Shown: piece by piece, positions 1 through 29,779 of the stretch
Position numbering within the stretch: the stretch's first letter is position 1
Layout: each line of letters begins with the position of its first letter
Virus record (IMG/VR): IMGVR_UViG_3300048579_000349
Coordinates: 1 to 33,169 of that record
Origin: a virus
Taxonomy: Duplodnaviria; Caudoviricetes
DNA: 33,169 nt
Strand: one strand, 5' to 3'
Notes under the pieces: generated by a model
What the model was told of the DNA's origin: nothing
Seen by the model: only the letters and a program-made list of their open reading frames with translations
The model's database searches: none
Translations under genes and position numbers: made by a program

Positions 1-747
1 TTAATTTGGGTTAAAATATAATATATAAACTGTTACGCCGTTAATTGTAATAGGTACTGCTCTAAGCTGAGTTGTTGCCTGTCCGTTCTGCTCTGTGGCA
101 ACCCATAACCCTGTTTCAACAGTAGTGCCAAACGAGCTTACAAGATGACCCGTTAAATTATTCTCCATCATATTTTTAAAATTCCAGGTTCCGTAAGCTG
201 TATTTGTGTTTTCATAAGCGACAAGCAAAGTATCACTATTCGATTTAATAATAGAGCTGTGCAACGCCGCCGGGTTAAACGTAAGTAACGAATTATTCCC
301 GTTATCTTTGATAGTAAAATATGTAAATGAGTTATTGCCGGTAAATGCATTGCTTGTGCTAAGCCTTGGAACTCGGTTATATAATGTATCTTTTAATTGC
401 TTTATTGAATTTGAAAACACAGTGGAGGAGTCATCTAAATATGAAACGATGGTAGCAACATTATCAAATTCGTTTCGGAGAGAACTGATTACCAACCTAT
501 GAACGGTTAAAGAATCATTTGTTTTGGTTTCAACGCTCGTTATCCGGGTGTTAATATTATGAAGGTATAGATCAATATCTATTAAATTCCGGTTGACGGA
601 ATCTGCACCCGGTCTGTCGCCTTCTCCCCACATACGGAGTAAATAATAAGTTGTCCTGCCAATAGGCGGGTCATACTGAGAGCGTGCTAAGTCTACAAAC
701 AGCAGTATCAGTATTGTTAAAGCTAAAAATAATTTTTTTGTTAACAT
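1..747 (-). CDS. Tail-fibre-like protein with N-terminal Sec signal peptide
   Basis: Lies directly after the tape measure gene. Signal peptide MLTKKLFLALTILILLFVDLARS|Q, then TTYYLLRMW..GD....SVNRNLIDID (resembles a fibre N-terminal anchor), a coiled coil, and NAFTGNNSF / NTAYGTWNF fibre-like motifs. Confidence 0.55.
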   Translation of the reverse strand: MLTKKLFLALTILILLFVDLARSQYDPPIGRTTYYLLRMWGEGDRPGADSVNRNLIDIDLYLHNINTRITSVETKTNDSLTVHRLVISSLRNEFDNVATIVSYLDDSSTVFSNSIKQLKDTLYNRVPRLSTSNAFTGNNSFTYFTIKDNGNNSLLTFNPAALHSSIIKSNSDTLLVAYENTNTAYGTWNFKNMMENNLTGHLVSSFGTTVETGLWVATEQNGQATTQLRAVPITINGVTVYILYFNPN

Positions 748-748
748 A

Positions 749-3700
749 TTATTTTGATATTTGATTATCTAAAACTGTTTTACCTATTCTATGCAATGCT
801 TCTGAAAACGCAGGTACTAATTGTTCATCTATTGTTTTATCGAATTCAGCCGAATTAATATCAAGAGTCTGAATTGGTAAACTCATATTACTAAAATCAA
901 AATTTATTGTAATATTTCTTGAAGATGATGCTGCCGGTAAATCTGGCATCTGAACGGAAGGCAATGAAAAAGTTGTCTCAGTAGGTAAAAACTTACTTAA
1001 ATCATACCCCTGATTTGCAAGCCCTACTAATGCCCTGTTAAATGGATATTGAGCACCAAGAGAATTCATAACAGCTTCTCTGTGATGTACAAACCCCGCA
1101 AGTTCATCTTCTCTACCGTCACCGGTCCAGCTTGTACCTGTTGCAAATGCTCTTCCTGCTGATTCCGTACCGCCAAATAATCCACCTGAAAGAGTATTTA
1201 AAAGGAATTTGAACAACGATGTCGCAGCCAGTTCAATTAATGCGTTATATACTTCTTGAATAAATATTTGAAATAATGAATGTGCCTCTCCAAATACTTC
1301 GACCCATACGTTTTTAAATTCAGTTTTTATTGAATTAGCTGATGCACCAAAACCCGAGTTTATTAAATTCAATATATTTAGTTGTCCTTCGGTGTGCACT
1401 CTTTCTAATTCTTTAATGCGAGATAATTCGTTTTGGTGTAGTAATAAGGAACGTTGGTCGCCGTCTTTATATGTTTGTAAAATCCTTTCTTTCTCTTTGT
1501 TGTATTTATTGTTAATATTAAATATTTCAAGATTGTACGTCTCTTCCGAATTCTTCATCATAGCCGTTTTCAACTCGGTGTTAAGTTGGTCATCAAACTT
1601 CTTAGCACTTAATTTCAGTTCCTCTTCCTTTTTAATATCAAGCTGTTTGCGGAGCATTTCTTTTTCGGAAATTTCAATCGAAGCTTTATCAATTTTATCA
1701 TACATAGTACGATAAGCGATTTCGATTTCAGAAGTTTCTTTTGCTGCACCCTGTAAAGTTTTCTCGGTTCGTTTATCTATGAATTTATCTACATCATCTA
1801 CAAGTTTTTTCTGCTCTTCACCGGATTTCTTAATCTGCTCGAACTGCGATGTCATTAATTCGGAAATCTTTTCAGATACTTTGGTTTGATTGTCTTTGTT
1901 TTGCAGACCTTCTTGCACCAGGTTAAGTTCTTTAAGATAGGAGTCTACAATCTCATTCCTATCTGCAAGGGTAGCTTCACCACGCTTAATTTCGTCATCT
2001 TTTAATTTTAATAAATGTTCAAAATCAGCTATTAAATTTTTCAGCGATTCATTTTCTTCTTTGTACGGGTCCGTTGTCTTTTCGCTACCTGAACCTTTAG
2101 TTTTTCCAGAGGGTGACTCTCCTGTCTTTTTTTCTTCTTTGATTTGCCCGGGTATTGGATGGTCTAAAGTAGGACCGTAAACCGGAAGAATTTCAATACC
2201 TGATTTATCCTTTACGCTTTTACTAAATGCATCTTTTACCTGTTCAATTCCAAGTTTAAACTTATCAAGATTTTGGTCAAATTTAGCTTTGTTAAATATT
2301 AAATCATATACGTTTAAACCGCCAAGCCCGACGAGTGCATTATAAAGCCCGAACATAACCTGTGTTGCACGGGATACAACTTCAATCATAATAGTGATTC
2401 CGTTAACTGCACCGTCAACTAATATTTTTAGACTACTAAGTCCTTCACCTGCTTTATTCGTACTGCCAAGCCATTTATTATTCGATTCGACCGTATCGGA
2501 AATAGTTCTGATGATTCTTGACATTGCATCAATAACGGTTAGTATAATATCCTTAATGTATAAGAGACCATCCTTGCCCATTGTTTTGAGTATACTAAGC
2601 AAATTTTCCGACCCACCGAATAAATCCGTAAATGAGTTCCATACGTCAATAGCCTGTTCCTTTATATCCTCGAACGCAACTGATAATTCATTTGAAACAA
2701 CATCCCATAGATCTTTAAGCTCGTCCCATAATTCAGAAACAACCTCTTTGAATTCGTTAATAACATCTTCACCGCCAACTAATTCTGTTACAAAGCTTTC
2801 GATGGCTTCCATATTAGTAAGCACTTCATATAATACACCGATACCTGCCACTACTGCGCCTATGATAAGAGGGATGCCTGCAAGTTCAACGTCGAGAGCA
2901 ACAAGTACCGGAATCAATGCCGTTGCTGCAGCTGTAACAACTATCAGAGCACCCGCTGCGGCTTGAAGGTCTGGAGGTAATTTTTGGAATAAATCCGATA
3001 CCTGCTGAACAATTGCCAATGCTTCCCTAACTACAGGTGCAAAAGCTTTTCCGATAGTTTCCTTCATATCTTTAAAAGCGTTATCGGAAATTTTAATCTG
3101 ACCGGCAAGTGTTTTGCCAAAAGCTTCTGCGGTGATATTACTATTTTGGGTAAGGATTTGAGACAGAATGTTAATTCTGTCCATACCGGAAGCCGCTTCG
3201 AACATAGCTTTCTGAGTATCGGACATTATAACGCCTACACGCTGCATAGCAGCCACCATATCGGCTCCTGTAGCCTTACCAATCATTATGGCTGTCTGAG
3301 TCAGGCTCATACCAGTATCGCTGCCCTGAGCGAACGCAGAGGCAACGTCGAGCATTTTAGGAGTGAGTGCCTCTATCTGATCACCTGTAGCTCCGAACGT
3401 GGTCAGCATAGCCTGCATATTAGTTATGTCATCGTCATCAAAGGGCGTTATTTTATGAAGCTCTTCTGATTGCTGTAATAGCCTGCTAAAGTAATCTCCG
3501 GAACCGAGCCTATCAAGACCACCACGTAGTTTCTCAACTGATAATTCCGATGCAGCATATTCCTGCGTAGAATCCATCACGGATTCTTTTACAGACATAA
3601 ATGCCTGTTTCACTCCGTCAAGAGTTCCCTGTACAAGTTGAAACTTCATAAGCTTGCTTATGGAGTCGGTTCCCTTTTCACCAAGAGTATGGATTTCTTC

Positions 3701-3904
3701 TGATGTGCTTTTAGCGGTTTTGTCAATGGATTCAAGCGAGGTTTTCAACGCGGAAAAATCAAGCTTACCTGCATCGATACTCATTCCGGATTTTAAATCA
3801 TTAATGACAGAATTAGACATCGAGAGAGCCTGATTTAAATCAGCTTTAAACTTCTCAAGATCTACTGTTAATTCGAGCCGTGCTTTGCCGAATGTATCTG
3901 CCAT
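749..3904 (-). CDS. Tail tape measure protein
   Basis: 1051 aa, helical, with a hydrophobic central segment and W/F-spaced repeats. C-terminal FATGTSWTGDG...AGFVHHREAVMN motif; follows the chaperone pair. Confidence 0.92.
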   Translation of the reverse strand: MADTFGKARLELTVDLEKFKADLNQALSMSNSVINDLKSGMSIDAGKLDFSALKTSLESIDKTAKSTSEEIHTLGEKGTDSISKLMKFQLVQGTLDGVKQAFMSVKESVMDSTQEYAASELSVEKLRGGLDRLGSGDYFSRLLQQSEELHKITPFDDDDITNMQAMLTTFGATGDQIEALTPKMLDVASAFAQGSDTGMSLTQTAIMIGKATGADMVAAMQRVGVIMSDTQKAMFEAASGMDRINILSQILTQNSNITAEAFGKTLAGQIKISDNAFKDMKETIGKAFAPVVREALAIVQQVSDLFQKLPPDLQAAAGALIVVTAAATALIPVLVALDVELAGIPLIIGAVVAGIGVLYEVLTNMEAIESFVTELVGGEDVINEFKEVVSELWDELKDLWDVVSNELSVAFEDIKEQAIDVWNSFTDLFGGSENLLSILKTMGKDGLLYIKDIILTVIDAMSRIIRTISDTVESNNKWLGSTNKAGEGLSSLKILVDGAVNGITIMIEVVSRATQVMFGLYNALVGLGGLNVYDLIFNKAKFDQNLDKFKLGIEQVKDAFSKSVKDKSGIEILPVYGPTLDHPIPGQIKEEKKTGESPSGKTKGSGSEKTTDPYKEENESLKNLIADFEHLLKLKDDEIKRGEATLADRNEIVDSYLKELNLVQEGLQNKDNQTKVSEKISELMTSQFEQIKKSGEEQKKLVDDVDKFIDKRTEKTLQGAAKETSEIEIAYRTMYDKIDKASIEISEKEMLRKQLDIKKEEELKLSAKKFDDQLNTELKTAMMKNSEETYNLEIFNINNKYNKEKERILQTYKDGDQRSLLLHQNELSRIKELERVHTEGQLNILNLINSGFGASANSIKTEFKNVWVEVFGEAHSLFQIFIQEVYNALIELAATSLFKFLLNTLSGGLFGGTESAGRAFATGTSWTGDGREDELAGFVHHREAVMNSLGAQYPFNRALVGLANQGYDLSKFLPTETTFSLPSVQMPDLPAASSSRNITINFDFSNMSLPIQTLDINSAEFDKTIDEQLVPAFSEALHRIGKTVLDNQISK

Positions 3905-4248
3905 TAAGTTTTATTTTTTACTTTTATCCCTGCTGACTCAAATGCTGCAAGCATATTGTCTTCATCTTTCTGTGTTCTTGCTTTTGGCTTATTGTCTGCA
4001 GGTAATTCAACTTCTTTAATTTTTGATTCGTAACTTTTTGATAATTCCGGATTCGTTCCGGTGAAACATTTAGCTATCCAGTCCATCTGCATAAAGGCTA
4101 ATTTATATTGCAGTGTAATATTATCTGATGTTTTCTTATTGTCATTTTCGCGCTTGCACTTATAGGCATATAATCCGTATCCGATTTCAGTTTCATTGTA
4201 AATCTTATCGAGCCTTACAGGGTCATAGTCAGCGAGGTAAGCTGACAT
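3904..4248 (-). CDS. Tail assembly chaperone, gpT-like part (likely made as a -1 frameshift fusion with 4320..4649)
   Basis: The reading frame is open upstream of the ATG all the way to the slippery heptamer T TTT TTC at 4350-4344; lies just before the tape measure. Confidence 0.8.
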   Translation of the reverse strand: MSAYLADYDPVRLDKIYNETEIGYGLYAYKCKRENDNKKTSDNITLQYKLAFMQMDWIAKCFTGTNPELSKSYESKIKEVELPADNKPKARTQKDEDNMLAAFESAGIKVKNKT

Positions 4249-4319
4249 TTCTTTGTAATTAAATTCAAAAGGCTTTTCATCTTTATCATATTGAGTATTT
4301 TCCTTATCGAAAAAACGCC

Positions 4320-4649
4320 TTATGCTTTTTTCGACAATCTCCTGAAAAAACGCAGAGCCTCCGTAAATTCAATTAAGCCTGCATTTTCATAAAAGTACTT
4401 TACGAGTTCCTTCCTCTGCTCGTCGGTTAGTTCTTTCTTGGAGACTTTCGTTTTCCCATCAATTTCGATTAGCATATCCGCCATTAATTCGGGGGCTTTG
4501 GAGAAATCATAATTTTCCACCTGCTCCTGTGTCATACCAAGCAGTAAGTCAACTTTGTGTTTCTTTTTTAATTCTTCGCATTTAGCGAATGAAGGCACTA
4601 CTGATGTAAAAGTTTTTTCTCCGATTACAAGTGTTCTAATTTCTGACAT
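4320..4649 (-). CDS. Tail assembly chaperone, gpG-like
   Basis: 109 aa, two genes before the tape measure, with a slippery site near its 3' end. Confidence 0.8.
   Translation of the reverse strand: MSEIRTLVIGEKTFTSVVPSFAKCEELKKKHKVDLLLGMTQEQVENYDFSKAPELMADMLIEIDGKTKVSKKELTDEQRKELVKYFYENAGLIEFTEALRFFRRLSKKA
4344..4350 (-). other. Programmed -1 ribosomal frameshift site (T TTT TTC)
   Basis: Codons cgT TTT TTC fit X XXY YYZ. The -1 frame reads FFQEIVEKSIRRFFDKENTQYDKDEKPFEFNYKE-MSAYL without a stop. Confidence 0.8.
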
Positions 4650-4653
4650 TTTT

Positions 4654-5394
4654 TTATAATTTAATTTTATAAGAAGTTTTTAAGTTAATTTGAAAGTTGT
4701 TTAAATCGAATTTACCGCCGAGAAAATTATACTGAATACCCGGCTCGATGCGTAAACGATTGAACGCTGTGATACCTGTTTCGATACCAGCGTTTACCCT
4801 TGGGGCTTTGATGCTGTCGAGGTTAAACGGAGAGTGCAGATTTATATAAGCTGAAATTCCATTTAGCTCGAAGTTATCGGTATTTACTAATACCGAGTTT
4901 GTATCTGATATTGCGGTGAAGCTGTTGCTAATTCCTGTAAAGTAATATTTCCTTACTACCTTCCTTTTTTGGTTTATTGTTGTGATGTTAAGTTCGTCCT
5001 TTGATTTATCGACCAATATCATTACATCTGTTTGTGGAAGTTTCTCTACAACTTCTTTCACAAATACAGAATCATAAGTTTTGTTATCGGTCGAGTCATA
5101 AGAGACTTCATAAACTACATCGGGATTGGAAGAGTGGCTGAATGCACTTCCGATTAACGAAGGCTGTTTTATTTTAATAAGTTTATCCCTATACTCGATT
5201 GTCGGTGCAGGGTAAGCCCCTGTTTGCTTATAAACTACAAGCGGTGTGCCCGTTGTATATTTACTTAATGATTCACCGAGCAATTCGAGTACTTTTTCAG
5301 GGTGGGACTTCGCAAGGAAGTACCCACCAATTAAAATCCCAACAAATATAATTACCGTTATTATTACCGGAGCATATTGTTTTATTTTATTCAT
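4654..5394 (-). CDS. Spanin-like membrane-anchored lysis protein
   Basis: Follows the endolysin. Single N-terminal TM helix, soluble middle region, and C-terminal amphipathic beta-strands. Confidence 0.5.
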   Translation of the reverse strand: MNKIKQYAPVIITVIIFVGILIGGYFLAKSHPEKVLELLGESLSKYTTGTPLVVYKQTGAYPAPTIEYRDKLIKIKQPSLIGSAFSHSSNPDVVYEVSYDSTDNKTYDSVFVKEVVEKLPQTDVMILVDKSKDELNITTINQKRKVVRKYYFTGISNSFTAISDTNSVLVNTDNFELNGISAYINLHSPFNLDSIKAPRVNAGIETGITAFNRLRIEPGIQYNFLGGKFDLNNFQINLKTSYKIKL

Positions 5395-5407
5395 TATCGG
5401 CTCCTGA

Positions 5408-5968
5408 TTATGCGTCCTGTTTTATCGGTACGTAACCGGGCAGATATGCAATCTTCAAAGCTTCGATGGTTACCGGTCCAACGATGCCGTCTGCTTTTAG
5501 CCCGTGCTCTTTCTGGAAATCTTTGACACCCTGGAATATTGCGCGTCTGAGCATTGATTGCTGAGCAACAGGAATAAACTGGATATGGCAGTCTTCCATA
5601 TTCAGGAGTGTTAAACCAAGACCTTTGGCGATATTGCGGATTGATTCATAATTGAGAGTGCTCCAGTCCCAGTTCCCTTTTTCGTTCTTGCCAACAAGGT
5701 CAACTGCTATTCCGAGATTATGCATACCATTGGTTTTGGTATTAGAGGCACCTGTATTGAACATATCCGCCTGACGTTTGTTACTACGGTATGTTTCGAA
5801 AAATTCAGGTGTGGAGCTATGCGAGCGCTTATATTCTGCAATCAAAGAATCTATCTTTGACTTGAATGTTGGTAACAGTAAGCTTGGGTCACTGCATCTT
5901 TTATCGGATAAGAAGTTTTCCGAAGTACAGATTTTTGATAAATAATTTTGGACTATTTCTGGATACAT
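5408..5968 (-). CDS. Endolysin, M15-type peptidase with C-terminal peptidoglycan-binding domain
   Basis: ETYRS..RQ, HNLGIAVD and DCHIQ motifs; FQKEHGLKADGIVGPVT is typical of PG_binding_1. Confidence 0.9.
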   Translation of the reverse strand: MYPEIVQNYLSKICTSENFLSDKRCSDPSLLLPTFKSKIDSLIAEYKRSHSSTPEFFETYRSNKRQADMFNTGASNTKTNGMHNLGIAVDLVGKNEKGNWDWSTLNYESIRNIAKGLGLTLLNMEDCHIQFIPVAQQSMLRRAIFQGVKDFQKEHGLKADGIVGPVTIEALKIAYLPGYVPIKQDA

Positions 5969-5995
5969 AATTGATTCCTTTTTTTAAAAATTTAC

Positions 5996-6020
5996 CTCTC
6001 GCTGCGTTCGGCAGCGAGAG
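5996..6020. terminator. GC-rich hairpin between holin and endolysin (weak terminator or mRNA stabiliser)
   Basis: Perfect 10-bp stem CTCTCGCTGC / GCAGCGAGAG with a 5-nt loop; no strong adjacent U-tract. Confidence 0.5.
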
Positions 6021-6039
6021 TATATAATTTTGATTTGCT

Positions 6040-6399
6040 TTAATTTGTTGCAGGTGCTCTTGGCTGAATTGCGCTTTTGTTAGGGTCCTGAATCACAAAG
6101 CTAAATGCGAATATTGCAATCGGCTGCAGGAAAGGTAATATTGCCGTCCAACCAATCTCAGGATAAAATTTACTGAGGATGACTTGTAACAGGTATATTC
6201 CCTTTTCGATTATAAGTGCAATCATTGCACTTACACTTTTGATTTGATTCGGGTCTGCAAAAATCGCAACGACTGTTATGCCGATAGTTGTTACCGTAGC
6301 AACAAGGTCTGCACTGATGCTTGGTACCCATAAGCTAAGAATGGCGAAGAACATACCAACCAAGGCTGTGATGAATCCTGCTATTGTCGTTTTTTGCAT
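6040..6399 (-). CDS. Putative holin (multi-TM)
   Basis: 119 aa with about four hydrophobic segments, immediately upstream of the endolysin. Confidence 0.7.
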   Translation of the reverse strand: MQKTTIAGFITALVGMFFAILSLWVPSISADLVATVTTIGITVVAIFADPNQIKSVSAMIALIIEKGIYLLQVILSKFYPEIGWTAILPFLQPIAIFAFSFVIQDPNKSAIQPRAPATN

Positions 6400-6423
6400 A
6401 CTGTTTTAAATTAAGTTTATAAA

Positions 6424-6714
6424 TTATTTTTTTGGTTCCTGACCGTAGTCGGGAATTTTTAGCCATTCCATAATTAAACCAAGCTTCCGGTTTGTTTCAT
6501 TGTTCTTGACTGAATCGATAAATTTCTGTTTGTTAAATTCCTCTCTATCAACTTTTTTATCAATTTTTTCTTCAAGTTTTGCATCCTTATTATTCAGGTC
6601 GCTGTAAACCATAGCAACGGTGAATACGATTAGTATTAAAGAGGCAGTCGTACTGATTATAACTTTTAATCGTGCAGAAACTTTTACTCTTTCAATATCT
6701 ATGTCTTTATCCAT
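6424..6714 (-). CDS. Single-TM coiled-coil lysis accessory protein (holin/antiholin-like)
   Basis: One TM helix followed by a charged coiled coil; first gene of the lysis cluster. Confidence 0.5.
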   Translation of the reverse strand: MDKDIDIERVKVSARLKVIISTTASLILIVFTVAMVYSDLNNKDAKLEEKIDKKVDREEFNKQKFIDSVKNNETNRKLGLIMEWLKIPDYGQEPKK

Positions 6715-6761
6715 TACGCTTGGTTTAATTATGGTTTAAAAATGTTTTGATTGTCCTTTAT

Positions 6762-7316
6762 TTAGAGTCGCTTATATGTCAGGTCAGAGCTTAGATACCT
6801 TTTCATTGTATATGTATTTTCTTCTCTGTAGGCATTTTTAGTTTCCATAGTCATCGGGAATTTTAATCCGGTTAATTCCGCCTCCGTAAAAATTATCCCG
6901 GGTTTTTCAAAGTCACCGCAGTAAGAATCTTTATTTATATTCAATTCGAGATTCTGTCCTATGGTAGTATTACCTAAAATAATCTGAGAGTAAACGCTAT
7001 CCCTCGAAGCACTTCTGAATATTTTTTTAGTTTTTTCAGTAAAGTATAAATTCTTTTTCGGGGGAATTCTTACATAACTCGTTGTAAGTTTTGCGCCTGT
7101 ATCATTGCTAAAATATACGTTTAGATAAACCGAGTCTGATTCGTTCGTAATCATACCCGTTCTATCCACTCCGGATAGACCTGGCACGGTGAACGTATCG
7201 ACTGCGGTCTTTACGTACTTAGCAGAGGTGTATGGCTGTGCCGGCACAGACTTAGGCTGAAAGGCAAAACCAATCAGCAGTATCAGTACCAGCGCAAATA
7301 CATTTCTGAATTTCAT
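6762..7316 (-). CDS. Signal-peptide-bearing beta-rich protein, paralog of 9498..10232
   Basis: MKFRNVFALVLILLIGFAF...VPA|Q signal peptide, AGGAG RBS, and shared PY..xK(Y/W)VKT..DT and RDS(V/I) motifs. Confidence 0.75.
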   Translation of the reverse strand: MKFRNVFALVLILLIGFAFQPKSVPAQPYTSAKYVKTAVDTFTVPGLSGVDRTGMITNESDSVYLNVYFSNDTGAKLTTSYVRIPPKKNLYFTEKTKKIFRSASRDSVYSQIILGNTTIGQNLELNINKDSYCGDFEKPGIIFTEAELTGLKFPMTMETKNAYREENTYTMKRYLSSDLTYKRL

Positions 7317-7339
7317 ATTATCTCCTTTAATTAAAGTTT

Positions 7340-7361
7340 CCTGCCCCGCTCTCGGGGCAGG
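7340..7361. terminator. Hairpin downstream of the tail tube gene
   Basis: Perfect 9-bp stem CCTGCCCCG / CGGGGCAGG with a 4-nt loop; weak U-tract. Confidence 0.5.
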
Positions 7362-7370
7362 TAAATAAAT

Positions 7371-8015
7371 TTATTTTGTCTTGCTTTCTTTTACTTTTGT
7401 TTCACTTTCGAGCATTGAGGCAACCTTAGCAGCTTCAGTGTTTGGCGCATCACCGGGAGGCACTTCATATTCACCTGTAATCATTTCCTTTACAATCGTT
7501 CCGACGTTGTTATCGTTTGCCGGGTCTGCAAGTGCCGTGAAAGAAAACTTGAATGTGTTTTCTTTTTCTCTTTGGAACGTAAGTTTCAATCCGCCGGAAG
7601 ATTGGATTCTGTAAAATGTAAAGATGATAAATTTTGAATCGTCCCTGATTCGGGGGATTTTGTACGTAAGCTTAAATTCAGGAGGCGCCATAAGTGTACC
7701 GCCAATTGTGTAAGTCCATTTATGGTTTTGAGTATCTTCTACTATATCATCCGGGTCACCTCCGAGTGCAAGCACCATATTTCTAACGGAAGACTCCAGT
7801 AACTCTATTTCTCCCTTGCATTCATTTTTTATTATCATTTGTTCAATCGGGTATGTTGCCTGATCGCATTCAATTGATAATATTTTTGAACTGATGTCAA
7901 TCGAAGCATTTCTGCTGGCTCCGACTGCAGTGCCGTCACCTGCTGTGCCTACGGTTTGCAGATACATATCTCCACCGCCCATTTCGATGTTCTTTTTTTC
8001 TATTGTTGAAGACAT
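7371..8015 (-). CDS. Major tail tube protein (siphovirus type)
   Basis: 214 aa, with N-terminal NIEMGGGDMY and C-terminal LTFQREKENTFKFSFTAL strand pattern; followed by a hairpin; no sheath gene present. Confidence 0.8.
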   Translation of the reverse strand: MSSTIEKKNIEMGGGDMYLQTVGTAGDGTAVGASRNASIDISSKILSIECDQATYPIEQMIIKNECKGEIELLESSVRNMVLALGGDPDDIVEDTQNHKWTYTIGGTLMAPPEFKLTYKIPRIRDDSKFIIFTFYRIQSSGGLKLTFQREKENTFKFSFTALADPANDNNVGTIVKEMITGEYEVPPGDAPNTEAAKVASMLESETKVKESKTK

Positions 8016-8050
8016 TTTATTTGTCCTTTATATTTGATTTAAAAAAATTT

Positions 8051-9493
8051 TTATCTTCTTATTGCGTTAAAAATTATACTTGCTAAAATCCTATTGCCGA
8101 GTTCTGTTAAATGCAGATTGTCATAAAAGTAATGAGTGTTTGAATATGAACCAGTAGCTCCGATATATTCATTTAAATCTACTCTGATAATACCCGTTGC
8201 AAATCTGTTGTAGTTAGCTATTAGGGAATCGTTATATGCCTGACGGTGAGTGCCTTCGTTGTTCCACGAAGTACAGGTGCAAACCCACACTTCCCATCCT
8301 TGCGCTCTTGCACTGTCGCACAGGATTTTCATAAGCCTGTATGCCGAGTCTGCAGATGCGCCTGCATTCATACTACAGATGCCTTCCATTGGGATATAAA
8401 TATTATTCCGGTACTTCGAATCATATAATGGGCGTACATTTGTTGTGAAGTTTTGAATCTGTGTCTCGGTTAACCGTGAACCTACGCCTTTATTATAAAC
8501 TATGTACCCCTGAAGGAGTGAATCTATTTTATGCGGGTAACTTAAATTATATCCGAGCAGGCACTGCGTAATTGAGTTGCCGTCACATACAATCTGTCCT
8601 GATGTTATGTTGTGCTTTAAGCTGTCAACCGCCTGATTAAGCAGTCTCCAATCTTTACCGTTGAATGCCCTGCTAAGTCCGCTTAGAAAATATCTGCGAC
8701 CTGCGAATGTCGAGGCAGTGCCTCCATTATTTACACAGCCTAAATAGACTTCGTAATTTGGGAGAGAGCTTGCAAATGTCACGTTTGAACTTGTCACATA
8801 TATTCCGTTTTTATAAAGCCAATTTTTTCCGCCGTACGCAGAGAATCCGTAGAAACCTCTTGAATCAGAATTAGTAGTATTCACATAGCTTGCGGTTGTG
8901 TTCACATTGTAATACATATTCCCGTTGCTGAAACGGATAATAGGATTAAAGTAATATGAGCCGGCTTGCACACCTGCATCAAATCCGCCAGGATTATTTG
9001 TGTCGCTGTATATGCACATACTTGCAAATGTTCTTTGAAACTTTACCGGGTCTGTTGATAAATTATATTTAAGATTTATATATTTATTAGATGCCGGAAT
9101 CAATCCTTTATACTTAATAAGCGAGGAACCTATGCCGCCAGCTAGTAACGCATTTTTATATCCCTTCAGGTCAACTACCGAACTTGCAGTGTCGTAGTTA
9201 CCATATAAAGTTATTTGGTCAAAAGCATCCCACAGGGTTGTATCGGTTATTTGTGTTGAATCATAAATAGCAGAGCAAAAATTATTTTTAAGAAAATAAA
9301 TAAACGAGTTAATTGCATATTTTGAAACCGAAGGATAATCTGCAGGTAGCTTACTAAAATATATCAATGCCTCGGGTTCGAATACAAAACTTGAAGTAAC
9401 ATTTTTGTAACCGGATTCATATCCTTTATAACCTTGAGCATTTGCTTTTATAAAGGAAAGGAAAATTAATATTATTAAAAATCTTTTGTTCAA
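8051..9493 (-). CDS. Signal-peptide protein with lectin-like middle region and C-terminal SGNH/GDSL hydrolase
   Basis: Probable TTG start at 9493 after GGGAGA. Signal peptide ...IKANA|Q; SGNH blocks DGNSIT, NKGVGS and DNLH. Confidence 0.75.
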   Translation of the reverse strand: MNKRFLIILIFLSFIKANAQGYKGYESGYKNVTSSFVFEPEALIYFSKLPADYPSVSKYAINSFIYFLKNNFCSAIYDSTQITDTTLWDAFDQITLYGNYDTASSVVDLKGYKNALLAGGIGSSLIKYKGLIPASNKYINLKYNLSTDPVKFQRTFASMCIYSDTNNPGGFDAGVQAGSYYFNPIIRFSNGNMYYNVNTTASYVNTTNSDSRGFYGFSAYGGKNWLYKNGIYVTSSNVTFASSLPNYEVYLGCVNNGGTASTFAGRRYFLSGLSRAFNGKDWRLLNQAVDSLKHNITSGQIVCDGNSITQCLLGYNLSYPHKIDSLLQGYIVYNKGVGSRLTETQIQNFTTNVRPLYDSKYRNNIYIPMEGICSMNAGASADSAYRLMKILCDSARAQGWEVWVCTCTSWNNEGTHRQAYNDSLIANYNRFATGIIRVDLNEYIGATGSYSNTHYFYDNLHLTELGNRILASIIFNAIRR

Positions 9494-9497
9494 AAAA

Positions 9498-10232
9498 CTA
9501 TCTCCCATTAATAGATAAATAAAAACGGACAAGCCCGCCGTATTGACTTCTTATGTACATATTACTGAACGCTCCCGCATCCCACCAGTCGAGTGCCGAA
9601 TATGGGGTTTTCGCTGGAATGGTTATTATATTATGGATGTGACTGAAATCCTGTTCGGGACTAATTTGTAAAGCAGAATCTGAGATGATGCTAAACTTAA
9701 ATGCCGCACCAATATTTACCTCGCTCCAGGACCCTATACTTAAGCTATTGAGTACGTTATATGCGTAACTACTACAGGTATCATTCACTTCAAGGTTAGC
9801 GGTTATTAAAGGAGGGTAAATATTAAAAGCAGCATTCACAATGAACGAGGTGTCAGCGCCAAAGCTTTTATTTATTTTCATTCCGTGCAGATCAATATCG
9901 CCTATATAGTATTTCACAAGAATGCTATCACGGTTTGCTTTTAATATAAATTTTGTACCTTCATAATTAATCGAGAAGTTATTCACTGCAGAGAAAAATT
10001 CAGTATTAAAAGTAGTGTCACGCTTTTGAGTTTTAATAAAAATGGTATCCTGTGAATTGCTGGCAAACTCTACTGTCAGCTTCACGTCGAATGCGTACCT
10101 GCTCAGGCGGATTGTATCGGCTGTGGTCTTGACCCACTTGCTGGCAACGTATGGATTTGGCTGCGAATGCAAGACCCCGATAGTAGCCAATAAGATTATA
10201 ACGCTGAGTAATATTGATTTTGTGCATTTCAT
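9498..10232 (-). CDS. Signal-peptide-bearing beta-rich protein, paralog of 6762..7316
   Basis: MKCTKSILLSVIILLATIGVLHS|Q signal peptide; N-terminal motif shared with 6762..7316. Confidence 0.75.
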   Translation of the reverse strand: MKCTKSILLSVIILLATIGVLHSQPNPYVASKWVKTTADTIRLSRYAFDVKLTVEFASNSQDTIFIKTQKRDTTFNTEFFSAVNNFSINYEGTKFILKANRDSILVKYYIGDIDLHGMKINKSFGADTSFIVNAAFNIYPPLITANLEVNDTCSSYAYNVLNSLSIGSWSEVNIGAAFKFSIISDSALQISPEQDFSHIHNIITIPAKTPYSALDWWDAGAFSNMYIRSQYGGLVRFYLSINGR

Positions 10233-10236
10233 TTTT

Positions 10237-10692
10237 TTAAATAATTATGTTTACTGAAACCGGCATAGTTAAAATCATTGCCGGCACGGATTCAATTGCA
10301 ATATCATTAATGGAAGCAGGACCGATTGAGCCCCCTGAAATACAGGACACCCCTGGAAGTTTTTCTAATAGTAATTCTTTAACGGCATTTGCTTTTGATT
10401 TTAAACCTGTTTTAATCGTCATATAATCTTCAGTATCAAAATTGGCTTCGTTAGTATTTGCCGAAGCAATTATTACAGATACAGTTAAATTCTGTTTTTC
10501 AGATGTAATGGAATTTTGATTGTTATCATTAAAAGTTTCAAAAGCAGGTTCGGAGTCTTCGACCAATACTGCAGGAAAATCTGCAATGGGAAAAAATATC
10601 GAACTTACTGATATTTGTTTCAGCCAGTCAAGCCTTTTTTCTTCGCCTGAATTATCTTCTAAAATTTTTAATATTGCCGCCTGTGCTTCCAC
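10237..10692 (-). CDS. Putative tail terminator/completion protein
   Basis: 151 aa acidic protein with a DFPAVLV motif, located after the neck gene. Confidence 0.6.
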   Translation of the reverse strand: MEAQAAILKILEDNSGEEKRLDWLKQISVSSIFFPIADFPAVLVEDSEPAFETFNDNNQNSITSEKQNLTVSVIIASANTNEANFDTEDYMTIKTGLKSKANAVKELLLEKLPGVSCISGGSIGPASINDIAIESVPAMILTMPVSVNIII

Positions 10693-11219
10693 TATGCTAA
10701 TTTTAATTTGCTAAGTTGTTCTGTTATAAAACTCTGATTTAAATTCATTGCCATTTGTAAGAACGGAAGACCTTCAGTACCTTTCTTTGCAATCTTTCTT
10801 GCTATTAAATATGCAATTGACTTAACCTGTGCTTCGAGTGTATCTGAACTCTTCCTTGCTTTTATCGCGCTTATGGATGTCAATGCTTTTCCTCTGCTTC
10901 CTTTTACCATTCCCCTTTTTATCACCCACTTCTGAATCGGTTCAAGCGGCGGAAAGTGAGGTTTAGTCCCTTCGTGTCTGTATATTGCATAAGGTACATT
11001 TGCGCCTACTCCAATTACCCCTATCATTTTCCCGATTTCTTTTATTATTTGTGTTCTTATATTCCTTGCTAATTCGCCAGTCACATTCACTTTCTTATCG
11101 TGCAAAATCTTCACCGCATCCGCTTGTAACTTTAGTAATATCACTCTTAAAGTTTTTTCGGCTTCGGCTTCCGACTTCTTTATTAGTTCAGGAATATTAT
11201 TTTCAAAATTATCGGGCAT
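10692..11219 (-). CDS. HK97 gp10-like neck/tail-completion protein
   Basis: TGELARNI, VPYAIYRHEGTKPHFPP, IARKIAKKGT...PFL motifs. Confidence 0.8.
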   Translation of the reverse strand: MPDNFENNIPELIKKSEAEAEKTLRVILLKLQADAVKILHDKKVNVTGELARNIRTQIIKEIGKMIGVIGVGANVPYAIYRHEGTKPHFPPLEPIQKWVIKRGMVKGSRGKALTSISAIKARKSSDTLEAQVKSIAYLIARKIAKKGTEGLPFLQMAMNLNQSFITEQLSKLKLA

Positions 11220-11683
11220 TATGGTGTAGCCATTTTAATTGAACCTGCGTTTAATACCATTGGATTGTTTTCAGAATCCGGGTCCGCTTTCGTTACGAAC
11301 CCCGATAAAAGCCTCACGGCTTCGTTCCTGTGTTTATTAACTTTGCTCTCAATATCATTTTCAGAAAGCAGTTCTATTTTGCCATCGCCAACTCCTGATG
11401 ACTTTGTTATACCGTTTCCGGAGGTTGCGTTATTCAGACCGGGCATCATATACGCCAGGCAAAAATTTGCTTCGCCAAGTGCGGCAATTTTTTTATTTAT
11501 ATCCGTATCTTCGAGAGCAGCAAGCTCATCATATTTAGCCTGACCGATTAGCTTTACTACATCAAGTTGAGCCGCAGGTAGCCATAGAGTAATTAAGTCA
11601 TCGGTTTTTAATTTAAGATTACCTGCTGATTTGATTTTATCTGCAGTAGCTAAGTAAGTAATATCTGTATCTGTATTGGGCAT
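11219..11683 (-). CDS. Head-tail adaptor/connector protein
   Basis: First gene after the capsid; N-terminal YLATADKIK and helical adaptor pattern. Confidence 0.65.
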   Translation of the reverse strand: MPNTDTDITYLATADKIKSAGNLKLKTDDLITLWLPAAQLDVVKLIGQAKYDELAALEDTDINKKIAALGEANFCLAYMMPGLNNATSGNGITKSSGVGDGKIELLSENDIESKVNKHRNEAVRLLSGFVTKADPDSENNPMVLNAGSIKMATP

Positions 11684-11700
11684 CCTTTTTTATTTTAAAT

Positions 11701-11733
11701 GTCTCGCACATACTGGAGGAATATGTGCGAGAC
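11701..11733. terminator. Hairpin downstream of the capsid gene
   Basis: Perfect 12-bp stem GTCTCGCACATA / TATGTGCGAGAC with a 9-nt loop. Confidence 0.55.
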
Positions 11734-11766
11734 TTATCTCGGTGTATGTTAATTAATTTTTGTTAT

Positions 11767-12717
11767 CTATCCCTGTACTGTCTTTGAATACATAACCATC
11801 AATTCAGACAGACGGTAGTTGAAGTCATTATAACAGGAAGAGACTATTACAACTTTCCTTGCAAGAATGTCTTTATCCCTGTCGATTGACATAGTACTGC
11901 CGTAGCCTACTGCAAAGTTTTCGGGTTTAGTTAAAATCATTCTGTTATCCGGCATTGCAAAATTCGGTTCGATCAATATACCATTATAATACACAGGTTC
12001 ATTTTTAAAGAGAATCGAATCTCCGAGCTGAGTATTTCTCTTCGCAAGATATTCACGGTATGCAAGTTCCGTGTCAGGAGAAACATAGTACCTTAATGAC
12101 GCTTTGTCATCCCTGTATTTCTTAGGTAAATCAACGAGCATTTTTTTGAATACTGTAACGAGAGGGTCTGCATCGGTATAGTTTCCTTTTTTGACATTAT
12201 TATCTGCCGCTGCCTTCACAATTATACCATCGATACTCTTTGTGAAATTATCCTGAGATGTTTTATCTCCGTTGAAGAATAATGAGACAAGGTCAGTTGC
12301 AAACTGCTTTGCAATTGCTCTTGTAATTGCTTCTTCGACTGCATTGACAGAATCGGGATTGAATGCGCCGCCGTTTGTTCCGATTGCTCTTCTCAAATAT
12401 TCGTAAGAAATAGCAACAGGAACTAAGAGTTCAATTGGGGCAAGGCTTCTCTTGGAATTTGTAATTCCAATAAGCTCTTCCGGGTTAATCCCCTCTACAC
12501 CTGCACGGATAATTCCGGTTCCGATTCCAAGCGTATCAAGATCTAACTGATTGACAATATCCGTGTAGTTGGATATGGTCTTGAGAAAACCGGACATATC
12601 AATAGTGGTTTCGATAAACGCAGCTAACTGCTGAGTATTAACCTGACCACCTGCACCGGTTGTAATCATACCCTTCATAACTTTTGTCACGAAGGCTTCT
12701 ATTTCTTTATTGTCCAT
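11767..12717 (-). CDS. Major capsid protein (HK97 fold, XkdG-like)
   Basis: 316 aa; GGQVNTQQLAAFI, DLVSLFFNGD, DGIIVKA and LPKKYR motifs; follows the protease. Confidence 0.88.
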   Translation of the reverse strand: MDNKEIEAFVTKVMKGMITTGAGGQVNTQQLAAFIETTIDMSGFLKTISNYTDIVNQLDLDTLGIGTGIIRAGVEGINPEELIGITNSKRSLAPIELLVPVAISYEYLRRAIGTNGGAFNPDSVNAVEEAITRAIAKQFATDLVSLFFNGDKTSQDNFTKSIDGIIVKAAADNNVKKGNYTDADPLVTVFKKMLVDLPKKYRDDKASLRYYVSPDTELAYREYLAKRNTQLGDSILFKNEPVYYNGILIEPNFAMPDNRMILTKPENFAVGYGSTMSIDRDKDILARKVVIVSSCYNDFNYRLSELMVMYSKTVQG

Positions 12718-12758
12718 AATAATATTTTTAAATATTTATAAATTAATTTCTTTTAAAA

Positions 12759-13925
12759 TTATTGCCCACCTAACAGGAAACCACAGTTGAGATTTTTCTT
12801 TACTTCTGCTTTTGACTTAGGCTCTTCTTTTTCTATTTCCTGCTGGCTGCCGGGTGATTTCTTTTCGAGCTCAGTAATTTTATCGTTCAGACCTTTAATC
12901 ACCTCATCTTTTTCTTTGGTGATTTTGTCGACTGCAGCGGTAACTGCATCATCGACCTGTTTCTTGATTTCTTCTGGTGTCATTTCAGTATCCTTATTTT
13001 GATTTTTTGATTTTGCGGTTTCGGCAGCGGCAAGTACTGCGTTCATATTATCTATTGCCGCCTGTATCTTTTTAAGATTTGCTTCCGATAAAACTTTTCC
13101 GGCTTTGCTTACTTTAATTTCACCGGTCTTTTCGTCGGTAACTTCTTTAATGATTTGCTTTGCGATTGTAATCGTATCAATTTTTGATTTGAACTGATCT
13201 ATATTAGTAAGTATCTGTGCTTTCTTGTCGGTTACTGTGGCATCGTTAAGAGCCTGGCGGATGGAATCGGACAGTGTCCATACATAGTCCTGAATTTCCT
13301 GTGTCCCCGCAAGTGAATTGAAATCCTTTATAATTTGAATTTCGTTGACGGGTTCTGTTGCTGATTTGTTATCCATATTATTTTCGAAAAATTTTGTAAA
13401 TGCGGTTAGAAATTTTTTAACTAAATTTTTTTCGGTATCGGCTTCTTCGATGCGTTCCGCAGTTCCATACATACTGAACCCGGTAAGCTCACCGCTCACC
13501 ACTTTATTCCAAACCTCTTCATTGTTTACCTTAACTGCGTATGCCCACGCACCGACCTCTTCAGGGAATAACGGGTCGCCTGATTTCACAATCCATGTTT
13601 CACACATAAAGACATCGCCAAGCGGTTTATTGTCGTGCTGCACGTCCGTCTTGTTTGAAGTCGTAAGCGACTTCATAAATAGTTCCTGCGCTTTTTCGAT
13701 TTCGGCGGCTGTCATAAAGTCACCGTGTGCATCCACCTGGTCGGGGGAATATACTATGCCATATACTTTCTTTTTAACTTCATCTGTCTTTGCAAATGTA
13801 AATCTGCGGATTTCATTTAAAGCGGATTCACCCTTTTCGGATTTCCATATAATAGTTTTTTTGTTGGCTCCTTTGTCAACAAGACTGACGAGTTCTACTT
13901 TTAAATTTCTTAATTCGCTTGACAT
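12759..13925 (-). CDS. XkdF-like prohead serine protease fused to a scaffold region
   Basis: VSLVDKGAN, VYGIVYSPDQVDAHGD, DVQH and GELTGFSMYG motifs; charged coiled-coil C-terminus. Confidence 0.88.
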   Translation of the reverse strand: MSSELRNLKVELVSLVDKGANKKTIIWKSEKGESALNEIRRFTFAKTDEVKKKVYGIVYSPDQVDAHGDFMTAAEIEKAQELFMKSLTTSNKTDVQHDNKPLGDVFMCETWIVKSGDPLFPEEVGAWAYAVKVNNEEVWNKVVSGELTGFSMYGTAERIEEADTEKNLVKKFLTAFTKFFENNMDNKSATEPVNEIQIIKDFNSLAGTQEIQDYVWTLSDSIRQALNDATVTDKKAQILTNIDQFKSKIDTITIAKQIIKEVTDEKTGEIKVSKAGKVLSEANLKKIQAAIDNMNAVLAAAETAKSKNQNKDTEMTPEEIKKQVDDAVTAAVDKITKEKDEVIKGLNDKITELEKKSPGSQQEIEKEEPKSKAEVKKNLNCGFLLGGQ

Positions 13926-14683: not shown

Positions 14684-15220
14684 TTAAAATCTAAGACCAA
14701 AATATAAACTTGCTTTTTCTATTTCGCTGCTGCCAAAACCAATTGTAAACTTATTTTCAGGAGCTATAATTAACAGCTTGCCATATACATACCCTTTTGT
14801 TTTATTTTGCTCCCATGTATACTTAACGGAAGAACCCGATAAATCATATATAGTATATTTCGAATGCCAAGTTAAAAAATAGCCTCCTTCAATTGCGAGA
14901 CCTGTATTTGAAATCAATCTTATGCCTGCACCAAGACCATACGGTCCTCTTTCTTCAACTCCTTTTATCGGTAGTTCATAAGATAATTGATTTATCTCTC
15001 CGTCTGCTTTTGGTTTTTTAATGCCATTATAATCCATAATTCCGGTAAACGTTATTCCTGCACCGGCAATAAAGTTAGAGGGATTGTAATATTGAGAAGT
15101 GATACTTGCACTTACACTTTGCATACCTACAGACAAACCGGATTCAAAAAATATTTTCTTAGTCTGCGCGGAGCAGGTAACCGAGATGACTATTAATAGA
15201 ACTGTGAATAAATATTTCAT
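14684..15220 (-). CDS. Putative outer-membrane beta-barrel protein (moron)
   Basis: GGAGG RBS before the ATG at 15220; signal peptide ...TCSA|Q; amphipathic strands; terminal LYFGLRF; has its own promoter. Confidence 0.7.
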   Translation of the reverse strand: MKYLFTVLLIVISVTCSAQTKKIFFESGLSVGMQSVSASITSQYYNPSNFIAGAGITFTGIMDYNGIKKPKADGEINQLSYELPIKGVEERGPYGLGAGIRLISNTGLAIEGGYFLTWHSKYTIYDLSGSSVKYTWEQNKTKGYVYGKLLIIAPENKFTIGFGSSEIEKASLYFGLRF

Positions 15221-16688: not shown

Positions 16689-16868
16689 ATGGGCGTACTA
16701 AATAATTTAGACCCGGACAGGCAATTAAAAAGGATTAAAAAACAGAAAGAGCACGACAAGAAAAAGTGTATAGAATCTAAAAAGGTTCTATCGAGAAGTG
16801 CTGATTATAATGGTCAGTACCTTCGCACTAAAGCATTCAGAAGATTAAACGCTGCAATCTGCCTATGA
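16689..16868 (+). CDS. Small basic hypothetical protein (59 aa, below the track cutoff)
   Basis: MGVLNNLDPDRQLK...NAAICL; ATGA overlap with the transposase start. Confidence 0.6.
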   Translation: MGVLNNLDPDRQLKRIKKQKEHDKKKCIESKKVLSRSADYNGQYLRTKAFRRLNAAICL

Positions 16869-18871: not shown

Positions 18872-19103
18872 AAAATCAATAGTCAAAAACAGTTACCTCG
18901 TCAACGTTGCCGGACGTGTTTTTAAAGGTGCTTACAAATTAATTGTAAAACATTTTTATACCTTTAGACACAGAGACTACGGAGAGGTTACCGGACAGCT
19001 TACAATGTGGGACTTCGCTTCAGGTCATATGGAGGCTATGACCGAAAACGGAGACTTCCTTCCAATGAATATAAAATTTGTGGAGGAAATATATGCACAA
19101 TAA
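18864..19103 (+). CDS. Hypothetical protein between transposase and ATPase
   Basis: 79 aa ORF overlapping both neighbours. Confidence 0.6.
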   Translation: MSKKSIVKNSYLVNVAGRVFKGAYKLIVKHFYTFRHRDYGEVTGQLTMWDFASGHMEAMTENGDFLPMNIKFVEEIYAQ

Positions 19104-20016
19104 TAATACATATTCGCCGGAAGAAATTGCTGAGATATTAAGAGAGTACATTTATCGTTTAAAGTTTTCCCAAAGCCTGCTTGCACAAAAAATCGGTATA
19201 AGCACATCCTCTTTATCTCAGGTGATGGACGGTAAATATAAGTATGACCCAACTAACTCGGTGTGGATTCAGATTAAAAATTTTGTCGATAAAATCGACT
19301 GCACTATTTACAAGACAAAGGTCTATGTAGTAACTCACAGAATTTTATCGGAGACCTTTGAAAAGAAAAAAATATCAGTAATCACATCAGGCAGCGGTGC
19401 AGGCAAGACCACTTCAATTGAGCAGTACTGCCTTGTAAACCCCTTCGCAATATTTATAAGGGTAAATGAATTTTTCACAAACAAATATCTTCTTGAAATA
19501 ATGATGCGTTCGGTTGGCAAAGAACCTTACGGATTGAATATGTCTCAGATGTTCGAGGCACTTTCAAATTATTTCGTGCATAATCAGAAGCTATTTATTT
19601 TTGATGAAGCCGAAAGATTAAAGGTTAGCCAGCTGGAAGCTCTGCGCGACTTCTACGATCAAGGCAATATCGGTTTATCCCTTGTCGGACTGAATGACTT
19701 GCGGAATCTTTTAAAGCGCGGACGTAACCTCAGAGAAAATCTCGTACAGCTTTATTCGAGAGTAGCTTATCAGGATGTTGTTGACTTCCTCGAACCGGCT
19801 GATATAAAAATGTTATTCAAAGATAAATTGCCCGGTAATAAAGTATCAAATGAAATGCTTAAGCACCTTGCCAAAAAGTACGAAAAGCAGGGAGGCTTCC
19901 GCTCTATGCTTAACCTGGCGGAAATAGTTTTGAAGGTACTCGATAATAACAAAGATAAAAAAGTGGAAATCGACGACGACCTGATTTCCGATTCTGAAAA
20001 ATATTTATTTGTATAA
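19093..20016 (+). CDS. MuB-like AAA+ transposition ATPase with N-terminal HTH
   Basis: GGAGGA RBS; SQSLLAQKIGISTSSLSQ HTH; Walker A GSGAGKT; Walker B FIFDEA; QLYSRV. Confidence 0.92.
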   Translation: MHNNNTYSPEEIAEILREYIYRLKFSQSLLAQKIGISTSSLSQVMDGKYKYDPTNSVWIQIKNFVDKIDCTIYKTKVYVVTHRILSETFEKKKISVITSGSGAGKTTSIEQYCLVNPFAIFIRVNEFFTNKYLLEIMMRSVGKEPYGLNMSQMFEALSNYFVHNQKLFIFDEAERLKVSQLEALRDFYDQGNIGLSLVGLNDLRNLLKRGRNLRENLVQLYSRVAYQDVVDFLEPADIKMLFKDKLPGNKVSNEMLKHLAKKYEKQGGFRSMLNLAEIVLKVLDNNKDKKVEIDDDLISDSEKYLFV

Positions 20017-27289: not shown

Positions 27290-27532
27290 ATGGACAATAA
27301 AATTATTAAGATAATTGAACAGGCAACAGAGCTCGGAATTACAGACCCGCTAAAAATTCGCAATTTGAAAATTTATGAGAAATTCCGACACTACAGAGAT
27401 GTAGATAAAATGAAATACGAAGAGGCTGTCAGAAAGTTATCCGAAGAGTTTTTTCTTAGTTATCCAAGAATTGAAAATATTATTATAATTGGAAAAACAA
27501 AAAACAATAAAAGCATTAAAGCCGGAAGTTAA
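27290..27532 (+). CDS. Mor/C-like transcription activator
   Basis: IRNLKIYEKF...KLSEEFFLSYPRIENII HTH; sits at the early/late boundary. Confidence 0.65.
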   Translation: MDNKIIKIIEQATELGITDPLKIRNLKIYEKFRHYRDVDKMKYEEAVRKLSEEFFLSYPRIENIIIIGKTKNNKSIKAGS

Positions 27533-28007: not shown

Positions 28008-28009
28008 TT

Positions 28010-29771: not shown

Positions 29772-29779
29772 GAGAAAAC

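Follow-up and report, generated by a model that had tools for sequence, protein, structure and literature searches.

Tailed-phage particles are taught as being built wholly in the cytoplasm, which raises the question of why a phage operon for virion proteins should contain genes whose products carry secretion signals. Such an operon is found in IMG/VR virus record IMGVR_UViG_3300048579_000349 (Duplodnaviria; Caudoviricetes), a complete virus record of 33,169 bases that was analysed over its whole length and is called the window here. Four open reading frames (ORFs) of its leftward late operon, all on the minus strand, encode proteins with a predicted leader followed by Gln; we name them slot A (9498..10232, 244 residues), slot B (8051..9493, 480 residues), slot C (6762..7316, 184 residues), and slot D (1..747, 248 residues). 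We propose that these late proteins would be exported, capped with pyroglutamate, decorated with the O-glycan of the host in the periplasm, and docked onto the particle at lysis. We give this proposal a probability of roughly 0.58; the case is firm as regards export, fair as regards the fibre encoded by slot D, and less settled for slots A to C.

As described in the original prediction, each of the four proteins starts with basic residues and a hydrophobic core and has a small-residue site directly before Gln, the layout of a Sec leader that is cut by signal peptidase I (SPase I) and conforms to the Q-rule. Leaders were judged by our own hydrophobicity rule (best 10-residue Kyte-Doolittle mean) and by conservation in homologues. 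The four slot leaders score 3.2-3.7, versus a maximum of 2.3, and mostly below 1.5, for the 33 window ORFs without membrane or signal segments. Leaders persist across homologues of 22-60% identity, including 5/5 of the first slot D homologues, and Gln follows the cut site in 27 of 28 leader-bearing proteins that share the slot D anchor and in 35 of 36 leader-bearing homologues of the jelly-roll domain of slots A and C (both families are described below). The original prediction had staked export on the leader persisting in homologues, which it does. Export of all four slot proteins via Sec is thus very likely as judged from sequence, and the same features argue strongly for the predicted maturation in the periplasm. 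A C-terminal sorting domain as used in type IX secretion (T9SS) is not among the Pfam families listed for the four proteins. Slot B starts with TTG at 9493, with GGAG 8 bases upstream; an alternative, longer TTG-started frame from 9532 overlaps the upstream gene.

The tight packing into the virion operon that had been noted initially is evident for slot D, 1 base from the tape measure protein (TMP) gene, for slot A, 4 bases from the tail terminator gene, and for slot B, 4 bases from slot A; 35 bases lie between slot B and the tail tube gene and 54 between the tube gene and slot C. The claimed neighbourhood of slot C needs correction, as a lysis cassette separates it from the TMP gene and it has its own ribosome site and an upstream G+C-rich hairpin in the gap to the tube gene (7340..7361, minus strand; -20.2 kcal/mol, without a U-run after it). 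A weak terminator-like hairpin is located at 9539..9524, and a promoter scan of the window gave 63 sigma70-like sites versus 58.7 by chance.

The gene order recurs in two related prophages, G001 and G003, in which a leader-plus-Gln protein likewise occupies every one of the four slots. Among the three phages, identities are 40-48% for the capsid protein, 44-51% for the tail tube protein, 49-61% for slot C, 30-47% for slot D, and 22-32% for slot A; slot C is conserved on a par with the tail tube. Slots A, C, and D are present in 3/3 phages, and slot B alone is swapped, the window form being unrelated to that of G001 and G003. G003 has an extra small leader-bearing gene after slot D. Single-protein scans for relatives returned nothing useful, one metagenome scan returned no locus, and ESM Atlas gave scores of at most 0.81.

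A property of the slot proteins that the original prediction overlooked is the likeliest reason for a periplasmic detour. The periplasmic O-glycosylation of Bacteroidota modifies D-[ST]-[AILVMT], exclusively on non-cytoplasmic proteins, as described for a handful of species (PMC12871550). The four slot proteins contain 19 of these motifs in 1156 residues versus 3.85 expected, a count reached in 0 of 20,000 shuffles; the 33 cytoplasmic window ORFs contain 23 in 7994 residues. Taken singly, slots A (5 motifs) and B (8 motifs) reach p ~0.001 or less and slot D (4 motifs) 0.02, and slot C (2 motifs) is not significant at 0.11. The inverse order, [ST]-D, shows no such enrichment. In G001 and G003 the slots have 4.0x and 2.7x the expected motif number, versus 1.0x and 0.6x in their signal-less virion genes. 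Lysis proteins with periplasmic parts, including the spanin-like genes, show the same excess.

For comparison with host proteins, we sampled three genomes of the inferred host class (~400, 200, and 180 kb, with 48, 22, and 13 signal-bearing soluble ORFs). Signal-bearing ORFs of these genomes have 1.60x, 1.53x, and 1.19x the expected number of motifs versus 0.81-0.93x for the rest, which corresponds to 0.37-0.55 motifs per 100 residues versus 1.3-1.8 in the phage slots. The slots are thus about three times as motif-dense as sampled host exported proteins, and the excess therefore represents a mark of periplasmic passage that is about threefold denser than export alone gives. Provided that the proteins are exported, the chances are good, judging from these motifs, that the glycan is really added.

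Evidence for a place on the particle is most detailed for slot D. Folding of the mature chains as trimers had been proposed as a check, and for slot D it yielded a confident homotrimer model with a coiled-coil stalk and a beta tip. The model scored 0.76 versus 0.00 for the best of three controls; 20 of 30 proteins known from solved structures to pair, and 1 of 23 known as single chains, come up to the score mark, a calibration that applies only roughly because the run used our own alignment and three copies of the chain. Runs agree in 84% of contacts, with a predicted local distance difference test (pLDDT) score of at least 83. Contacts follow heptads over residues ~51-122 and are dense beyond. 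The protein, which contains no Cys, is accordingly laid out as a predicted leader (residues 1-23; 23 codons, 679..747, minus strand), an anchor (residues 24-72; 532..678, minus strand), a coiled coil (~51-122), and an intertwined beta region that extends to the end. The model suggests that slot D likely encodes a trimeric tail fibre.

The anchor, i.e., the first 49 residues after the cut, is the most conserved part of slot D and links it to ordinary phage fibres. A profile of the anchor collected 38 proteins, of which 28 have a full leader, 3 have a start called inside the leader, and 7 carry the anchor at residue 2. The last group are signal-less tail-tip fibres of other Ignavibacteria-class prophages, and the predicted cut of slot D would make its mature chain begin in line with this signal-less form. 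Where readable, the signal-less forms are long fibres encoded directly after a tail-tip gene whose product ends in Gly-Tyr-Gly (GYG), in siphovirus-type prophages (L133, L137-L139). The slot D form sits between the TMP and hub genes in G003 and in a further relative, L007. The window record stops exactly where ORF 1..747 has its stop codon, and genes downstream of slot D therefore lie outside its view; in G003 and L007 they encode an 800-residue hub-like protein and then a distal-tail-like protein of 160 residues (position being the basis of both names), neither with a leader, the latter ending in GYG. The GYG-ended proteins of G003 and L007 align at 38%. No BLASTP alignment was obtained between those of G003 and L133, which are therefore linked by end motif and position only. 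A leader form is likewise found behind a gene with a similar end in L132, a podovirus-like contig that is unrelated. This contig, from an Ignavibacteria-class genome, has three signal-plus-Gln genes in its virion region, one being the anchor fibre (L132:90-925, 10463-11404). A leader-plus-Gln protein with four motifs on L131 (775-1689, short context) matches the slot D profile over the C-terminal part of the latter.

Leader and motif go together within this family, which further supports export. Beyond the anchor, the 28 leader forms have 129 motifs versus 44.4 expected (2.90x), and the seven signal-less forms have 8 versus 22.8 expected (0.35x). Even a site within the anchor differs, reading D-S-V/I in 28/28 leader forms and D-A-L in 7/7 signal-less forms. 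In the prophages L133 and L137-L139 the spanin-like lipoproteins are motif-rich, unlike the fibres. The same prophages with signal-less fibres have leader-plus-Gln proteins in the lysis region that are probably secreted endolysins (L133:2435-2983, L137:1105-1653). The anchor matched 1/401 phylum-level genomes, the hit being one of its own seeds, and was thus not found outside its group among the genomes searched; sequence searches of the PDB gave no match for the anchor and only antibody noise for the fibre profile. The proposal that the exported proteins join the particle thus gains ground for slot D, through the trimer model, the anchor shared with ordinary fibres, and the tail-tip position, and the slot D protein is quite probably a particle component. 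For slots A to C, a place on the particle has about even odds.

Slots A and C share an N-terminal domain, which makes up a 90-residue single domain in slot C and is followed by a variable C-terminal part in slot A. It is predicted to form an eight-stranded jelly-roll (pLDDT 90). The nearest folds include many phage proteins of 90-120 residues and a few named virion proteins. The best match is the spore pilin Ena1 (Z 10.9, root-mean-square deviation (rmsd) 2.5, 89 residues aligned), and the slot C model also matches the STIV turret protein A223 (Z 9.8, rmsd 2.1, 81 aligned) and, at a weak level, a turret chain of HFTV1 (E 0.015, TM 0.48). The modelled fold is compatible with an ornament, and its matches are generic. 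A jelly-roll profile retrieved 45 representatives; from the 43 new identifiers, 5 repeat-type hits were dropped before counting, and of the remaining 38 homologues, 36 have a leader (35 with Gln) and 2 a shortened leader, and together they contain 128 motifs versus 30.8 expected. This profile also had weak matches in 3/401 class genomes; the two open-frame hits examined are located in signal-less housekeeping genes and were discarded as chance.

Slot B is a swappable slot for a predicted enzyme. The window form, with 9 Cys, has a predicted C-terminal SGNH-like esterase domain (PF13472, E 1.7e-4, below cut-off). By eye, the Ser, Gly, and Asp-x-x-His of the SGNH blocks are present and the Asn of block III is apparently replaced. 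An AlphaFold model made without an alignment had a pLDDT of 32, and slot B of the window and of G003 had no PDB sequence match. We do not claim a subtilase-like identity for slot B of G001 and G003, which was suggested by eye only, the G001 form being without a Pfam hit.

Taken together, these observations point to a probable route. The four late-operon proteins, encoded in fixed slots, would be exported by the Sec system of the host, their leaders would be cut at the Gln site, and the new N-termini would be capped as pyroglutamate. The O-glycan of the host would then be added in the periplasm, where the proteins would stay, given that no T9SS sorting domain is listed for them. Opening of the envelope by holin, endolysin, and spanin would mix periplasm and cytoplasm and allow docking on the finished particle. 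Cleavage would free the slot D anchor so that it starts where the signal-less form does, and this anchor may then bind the GYG-ended tail-tip protein. Slots A and C could build an ornament on head or tail that might bear the slot B enzyme, and the glycan coat might protect or disguise the appendages. Late addition as such has precedents in P22 and T4, in which spikes and fibres are added to finished particles. The parts (fibre, jelly-roll, and esterase) are of known kinds; as for the route, our literature searches among open papers listed no description of Sec-exported, host-glycosylated tailed-phage parts.

A cultured precedent for such proteins joining a particle is the Cellulophaga phage phi18:3 (NC_021794), in which gp085, gp086, and gp087 are leader-plus-Gln proteins. 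They represent 3 of the 12 proteins annotated from tandem mass spectrometry (MS/MS) in the 41 kb examined and are listed in the record as structural or tail proteins, so that leader-plus-Gln proteins of a Bacteroidota phage can occur with particles. Unlike the window phage, phi18:3 is podovirus-type and has no motif excess, and its record is silent on leaders. For N-terminal docking, crAss001 offers a parallel, as its gp22 trimer docks in the hub by residues 1-26 (PMC10172136); the fibres of L133 and L137-L139 belong to the same anchor family as slot D. Such ordinary N-anchored fibres differ from slot D in having no leader and in being made and attached in the cytoplasm; a leader was absent from 8/8 crAss001 fibre and head proteins checked. 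The general O-glycosylation of Bacteroidota has the same target motif on non-cytoplasmic proteins as the slots, yet it is described for host proteins (PMC12871550), and the substrates predicted in the window are late proteins of a phage, in which the motif is denser than in the sampled host exported proteins. For slots A to C, the capsid turrets of HFTV1, with a gp30 base and a gp31 deacetylase head (bioRxiv 2024.12.09.627619), and STIV A223 resemble the slots in combining a small beta-sandwich base with a glycan-acting enzyme. This is a likeness of design based on a common fold, and a head location of slots A to C does not follow from it. HFTV1 was rejected as a precedent for secreted virion parts, the words "signal peptide" being absent from the text of that preprint. 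Sugar-coated tailed-phage particles are familiar from the mycobacteriophage Che8 and its kin, whose coat is made by phage-encoded glycosyltransferases and is not known to involve export. The window differs, as none of its 37 proteins scanned with Pfam and PHROG matched a glycosyltransferase family.

Several points weigh against the proposed route. The window phage is known here from its genes, and its host assignment depends on one terminase match at 56%. Docking after lysis would require high affinity once the cell contents dilute. Chemically shown O-glycosylation in Ignavibacteria was not found in the parts of PMC12871550 consulted. The phi18:3 proteins have one motif each versus 2.9-3.6 expected, and export is therefore not always for glycosylation. 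Within the anchor family, three signal-bearing proteins (P0019-P0021) have no motif after the anchor, and the 38 proteins form 18 clusters, with the seven signal-less forms in three clusters that look like one lineage and therefore come near to a single independent contrast. For slot D, none of the fibre families in PHROG or Pfam reached the cut-off; BppL_N was found on the G001 form at E 2.8e-4 and is listed for 2 of the 38 anchor proteins. The jelly-roll matches are generic, with a spore pilus protein as the best, and no signal-less form was found among the 38 jelly-roll homologues.

Alternatively, the slot proteins could be late exported helpers that act in the periplasm at release and never join the particle, for instance in lysis timing, in surface loosening, or as soluble fibres blocking receptors. 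T4 RI and T5 Llp are precedents for such helpers. Slot C could then be antiholin-like, the slot B esterase (or protease-like form) could loosen wall or surface polymers, and the fibres could block receptors on debris. This idea fits the arrangement shared by the three phages, in which slot C comes ahead of the genes for the membrane protein, the holin, and the endolysin, and the hairpin upstream of slot C; from its place next to the lysis cassette, slot C may indeed be a lysis helper. Like the endolysin, slot B is exchanged among the phages, and spanin-like genes share the motif excess, as does the crAss001 lysis protein gp27 with 4 motifs versus 0.3 expected. With release helpers, however, there would be no explanation for the anchor of ordinary tail-tip fibres being the best-conserved part of slot D, nor for the MS/MS annotations of the phi18:3 proteins, and we consider this explanation unlikely overall. 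The slot proteins could also be exported virion parts for which the glycan is incidental or not added at all, the purpose of export being disulfide formation, a protected pyroglutamate end, or sequestration of sticky fibres and enzymes from cytoplasmic assembly and defence sensors. This would accommodate phi18:3 gp085-087 without a motif excess, the nine Cys of slot B, and the stabilisation of exported proteins by pyroglutamate (PMC10653852). It does not account for a motif density about threefold that of the sampled host exported proteins, nor for an anchor site that itself switches with the leader, and slot D is devoid of Cys; we regard it as quite unlikely.

The slots might instead be morons, i.e., genes expressed in the lysogen that change the host envelope, for example as adhesins or by blocking superinfection. 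Five function-unassigned Q-rule genes of Porphyromonas gingivalis prophages were read in this way, as possible outer-membrane modifiers (PMC10367356), and were cited again in PMC10653852. Like the slots, they have a Sec leader with Gln at +1 and appear adapted to the secretion system of the host, but no link to virions was made in the passages of PMC10367356 consulted, and the word glycosylation is absent from its main text. The exchangeability of slot B agrees with the moron interpretation, and the chance-level promoter scan leaves room for separate promoters. However, neither patchiness nor an aberrant base composition was observed: slot G+C is 0.37-0.39, the same as that of core genes, the order of slots A, C, and D is kept among phages with capsids as divergent as stated above, with slot C conserved like the tube, and slots lie 1-4 bases from structural genes. 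The slot D family, moreover, has matches in 4/401 class genomes, and the three examined are all prophage-like. An internal control is provided by a fifth signal-plus-Gln gene, absent from the original prediction, beside the repressor (14684..15220, minus strand; G+C 0.34). Across the phages this repressor-side gene has a G+C of 0.32-0.34, is replaced by an unrelated gene in G001, and lacks the motif in 3/3 phages; it behaves moron-like, and the slots differ from it. Its product, with an outer-membrane-barrel-like end and 47% identity to the G003 gene, is a candidate for a role in superinfection or lysogenic conversion. We thus see little chance that the four slots are morons. Finally, the N-termini might not be export signals at all, being anchors that stay uncut or leaders that a protease of the phage removes in the cytoplasm, with the D-[ST] excess reflecting turns of beta-rich fibres. 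The leaders were, after all, judged by a hydrophobicity rule and conservation, and capsid proteins with signal-like leaders that are probably cut by the prohead protease have been described (PMC10367356). The near-invariant Gln after the cut site in both families, the motif depletion in signal-less fibres with the same anchor, and the lack of [ST]-D enrichment make this highly improbable.

If true, the proposed route would offer an explanation for those signal-bearing late-operon genes of phages that have no assigned function and are now filed as morons, and would give the Bacteroidota O-glycan, whose function is largely unknown according to a review (PMC12871550), a use. The anchor family provides a natural pair, as leader and motifs accompany one fibre anchor in some proteins and are missing in others, and suggests that gain of both may act as a switch on an ordinary fibre. 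The export step is testable in phi18:3 as a cultured stand-in. Only tentatively would we extend the proposal to a second assembly compartment in tailed phages of Bacteroidota and Ignavibacteria, in which appendages are exported, pyroglutamate-capped, and dressed with O-glycan, snap on at lysis, and may arise from ordinary fibres by such a switch. Progeny would then wear the species-specific glycan of their last host, so that host range and stability would bear a mark that the host controls and that is not inherited. Animal and archaeal viruses use the secretory and glycosylation route of their hosts, and the periplasmic leg would be its bacterial counterpart.

From its gene content, the window phage is a Mu-like transposable prophage. 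Pfam and PHROG scans identified a DDE transposase, a MuB ATPase, Gam, GemA, DUF1804, and Mu F; these are encoded, with terminase and portal, in the plus-strand arm (Mu-type transposase and MuB-like ATPase at 16865..20016, plus strand; phrog_310, E 3e-51, and phrog_296, E 6e-44). It is a prophage because the window proteins are also present on a 1.18-Mb contig. The host probably belongs to the class Ignavibacteria, as the terminase matches an Ignavibacteria genome bin at 56%, the best of the matches listed among the genome contigs reached, with the next at 30%. The leftward operon encodes protease, capsid, neck, tube, lysis, and tape-measure proteins, all on the minus strand. Prohead protease, major capsid, adaptor-like, neck, and tail terminator-like proteins (the last assigned by position) are encoded at 10237..13925 (phrog_5, phrog_1623, phrog_3017), all without leader. 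The tail tube protein (7371..8015; phrog_2175, E 5e-10, and phrog_885, E 0.009) has neither leader nor motif, and the TMP (749..3904; phrog_28, E 1e-13) has no leader and motifs at chance level. The lysis cassette comprises a single-helix membrane protein (6424-6714) and a holin-like protein (6040-6399), both recognised by hydrophobic segments, an endolysin (5408-5968; phrog_2649, E 4e-13, and PG_binding_1), and a spanin-like protein with an N-terminal membrane anchor (4654..5394), which was assigned by position and anatomy and has three motifs in its predicted periplasmic part. Two tail-assembly-chaperone-like ORFs (3904..4649, minus strand), possibly linked by a programmed frameshift, precede the TMP gene.

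Late genes are arranged in two divergent arms (13925..1, minus; 27489..32877, plus) that flank the repressor and early genes, with terminase, portal, and F in one arm and protease through tail in the other, as also in G001 and G003; Mu has its late genes in a single run. Endolysins are unrelated in four relatives (window 5408..5968; L002:4820-5401; L127:8141-8776; L007:3114-3536), and in L007 an amidase gene is located between the TMP and fibre genes. Single spanin-like proteins with a barrel-like C-terminus and three motifs each are encoded in the window (4654..5394), L002 (5412-6068), and L127 (8773-9426); no lipoprotein partner was seen for the three, which are possibly one-piece spanins. 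A stand-alone palm-thumb fragment of a family X polymerase is encoded among the early genes (22662..23165, plus strand; PF14791, E 1.5e-10). Two DNA methyltransferases on the plus strand, C5 (23713..25506) and D12-class adenine (29780..30559), also occur in G001, and the second sits between terminase and portal. G003 has two tandem tail-tube genes (L127:5092-6264, 6345-6893), one with a 200-residue extension.

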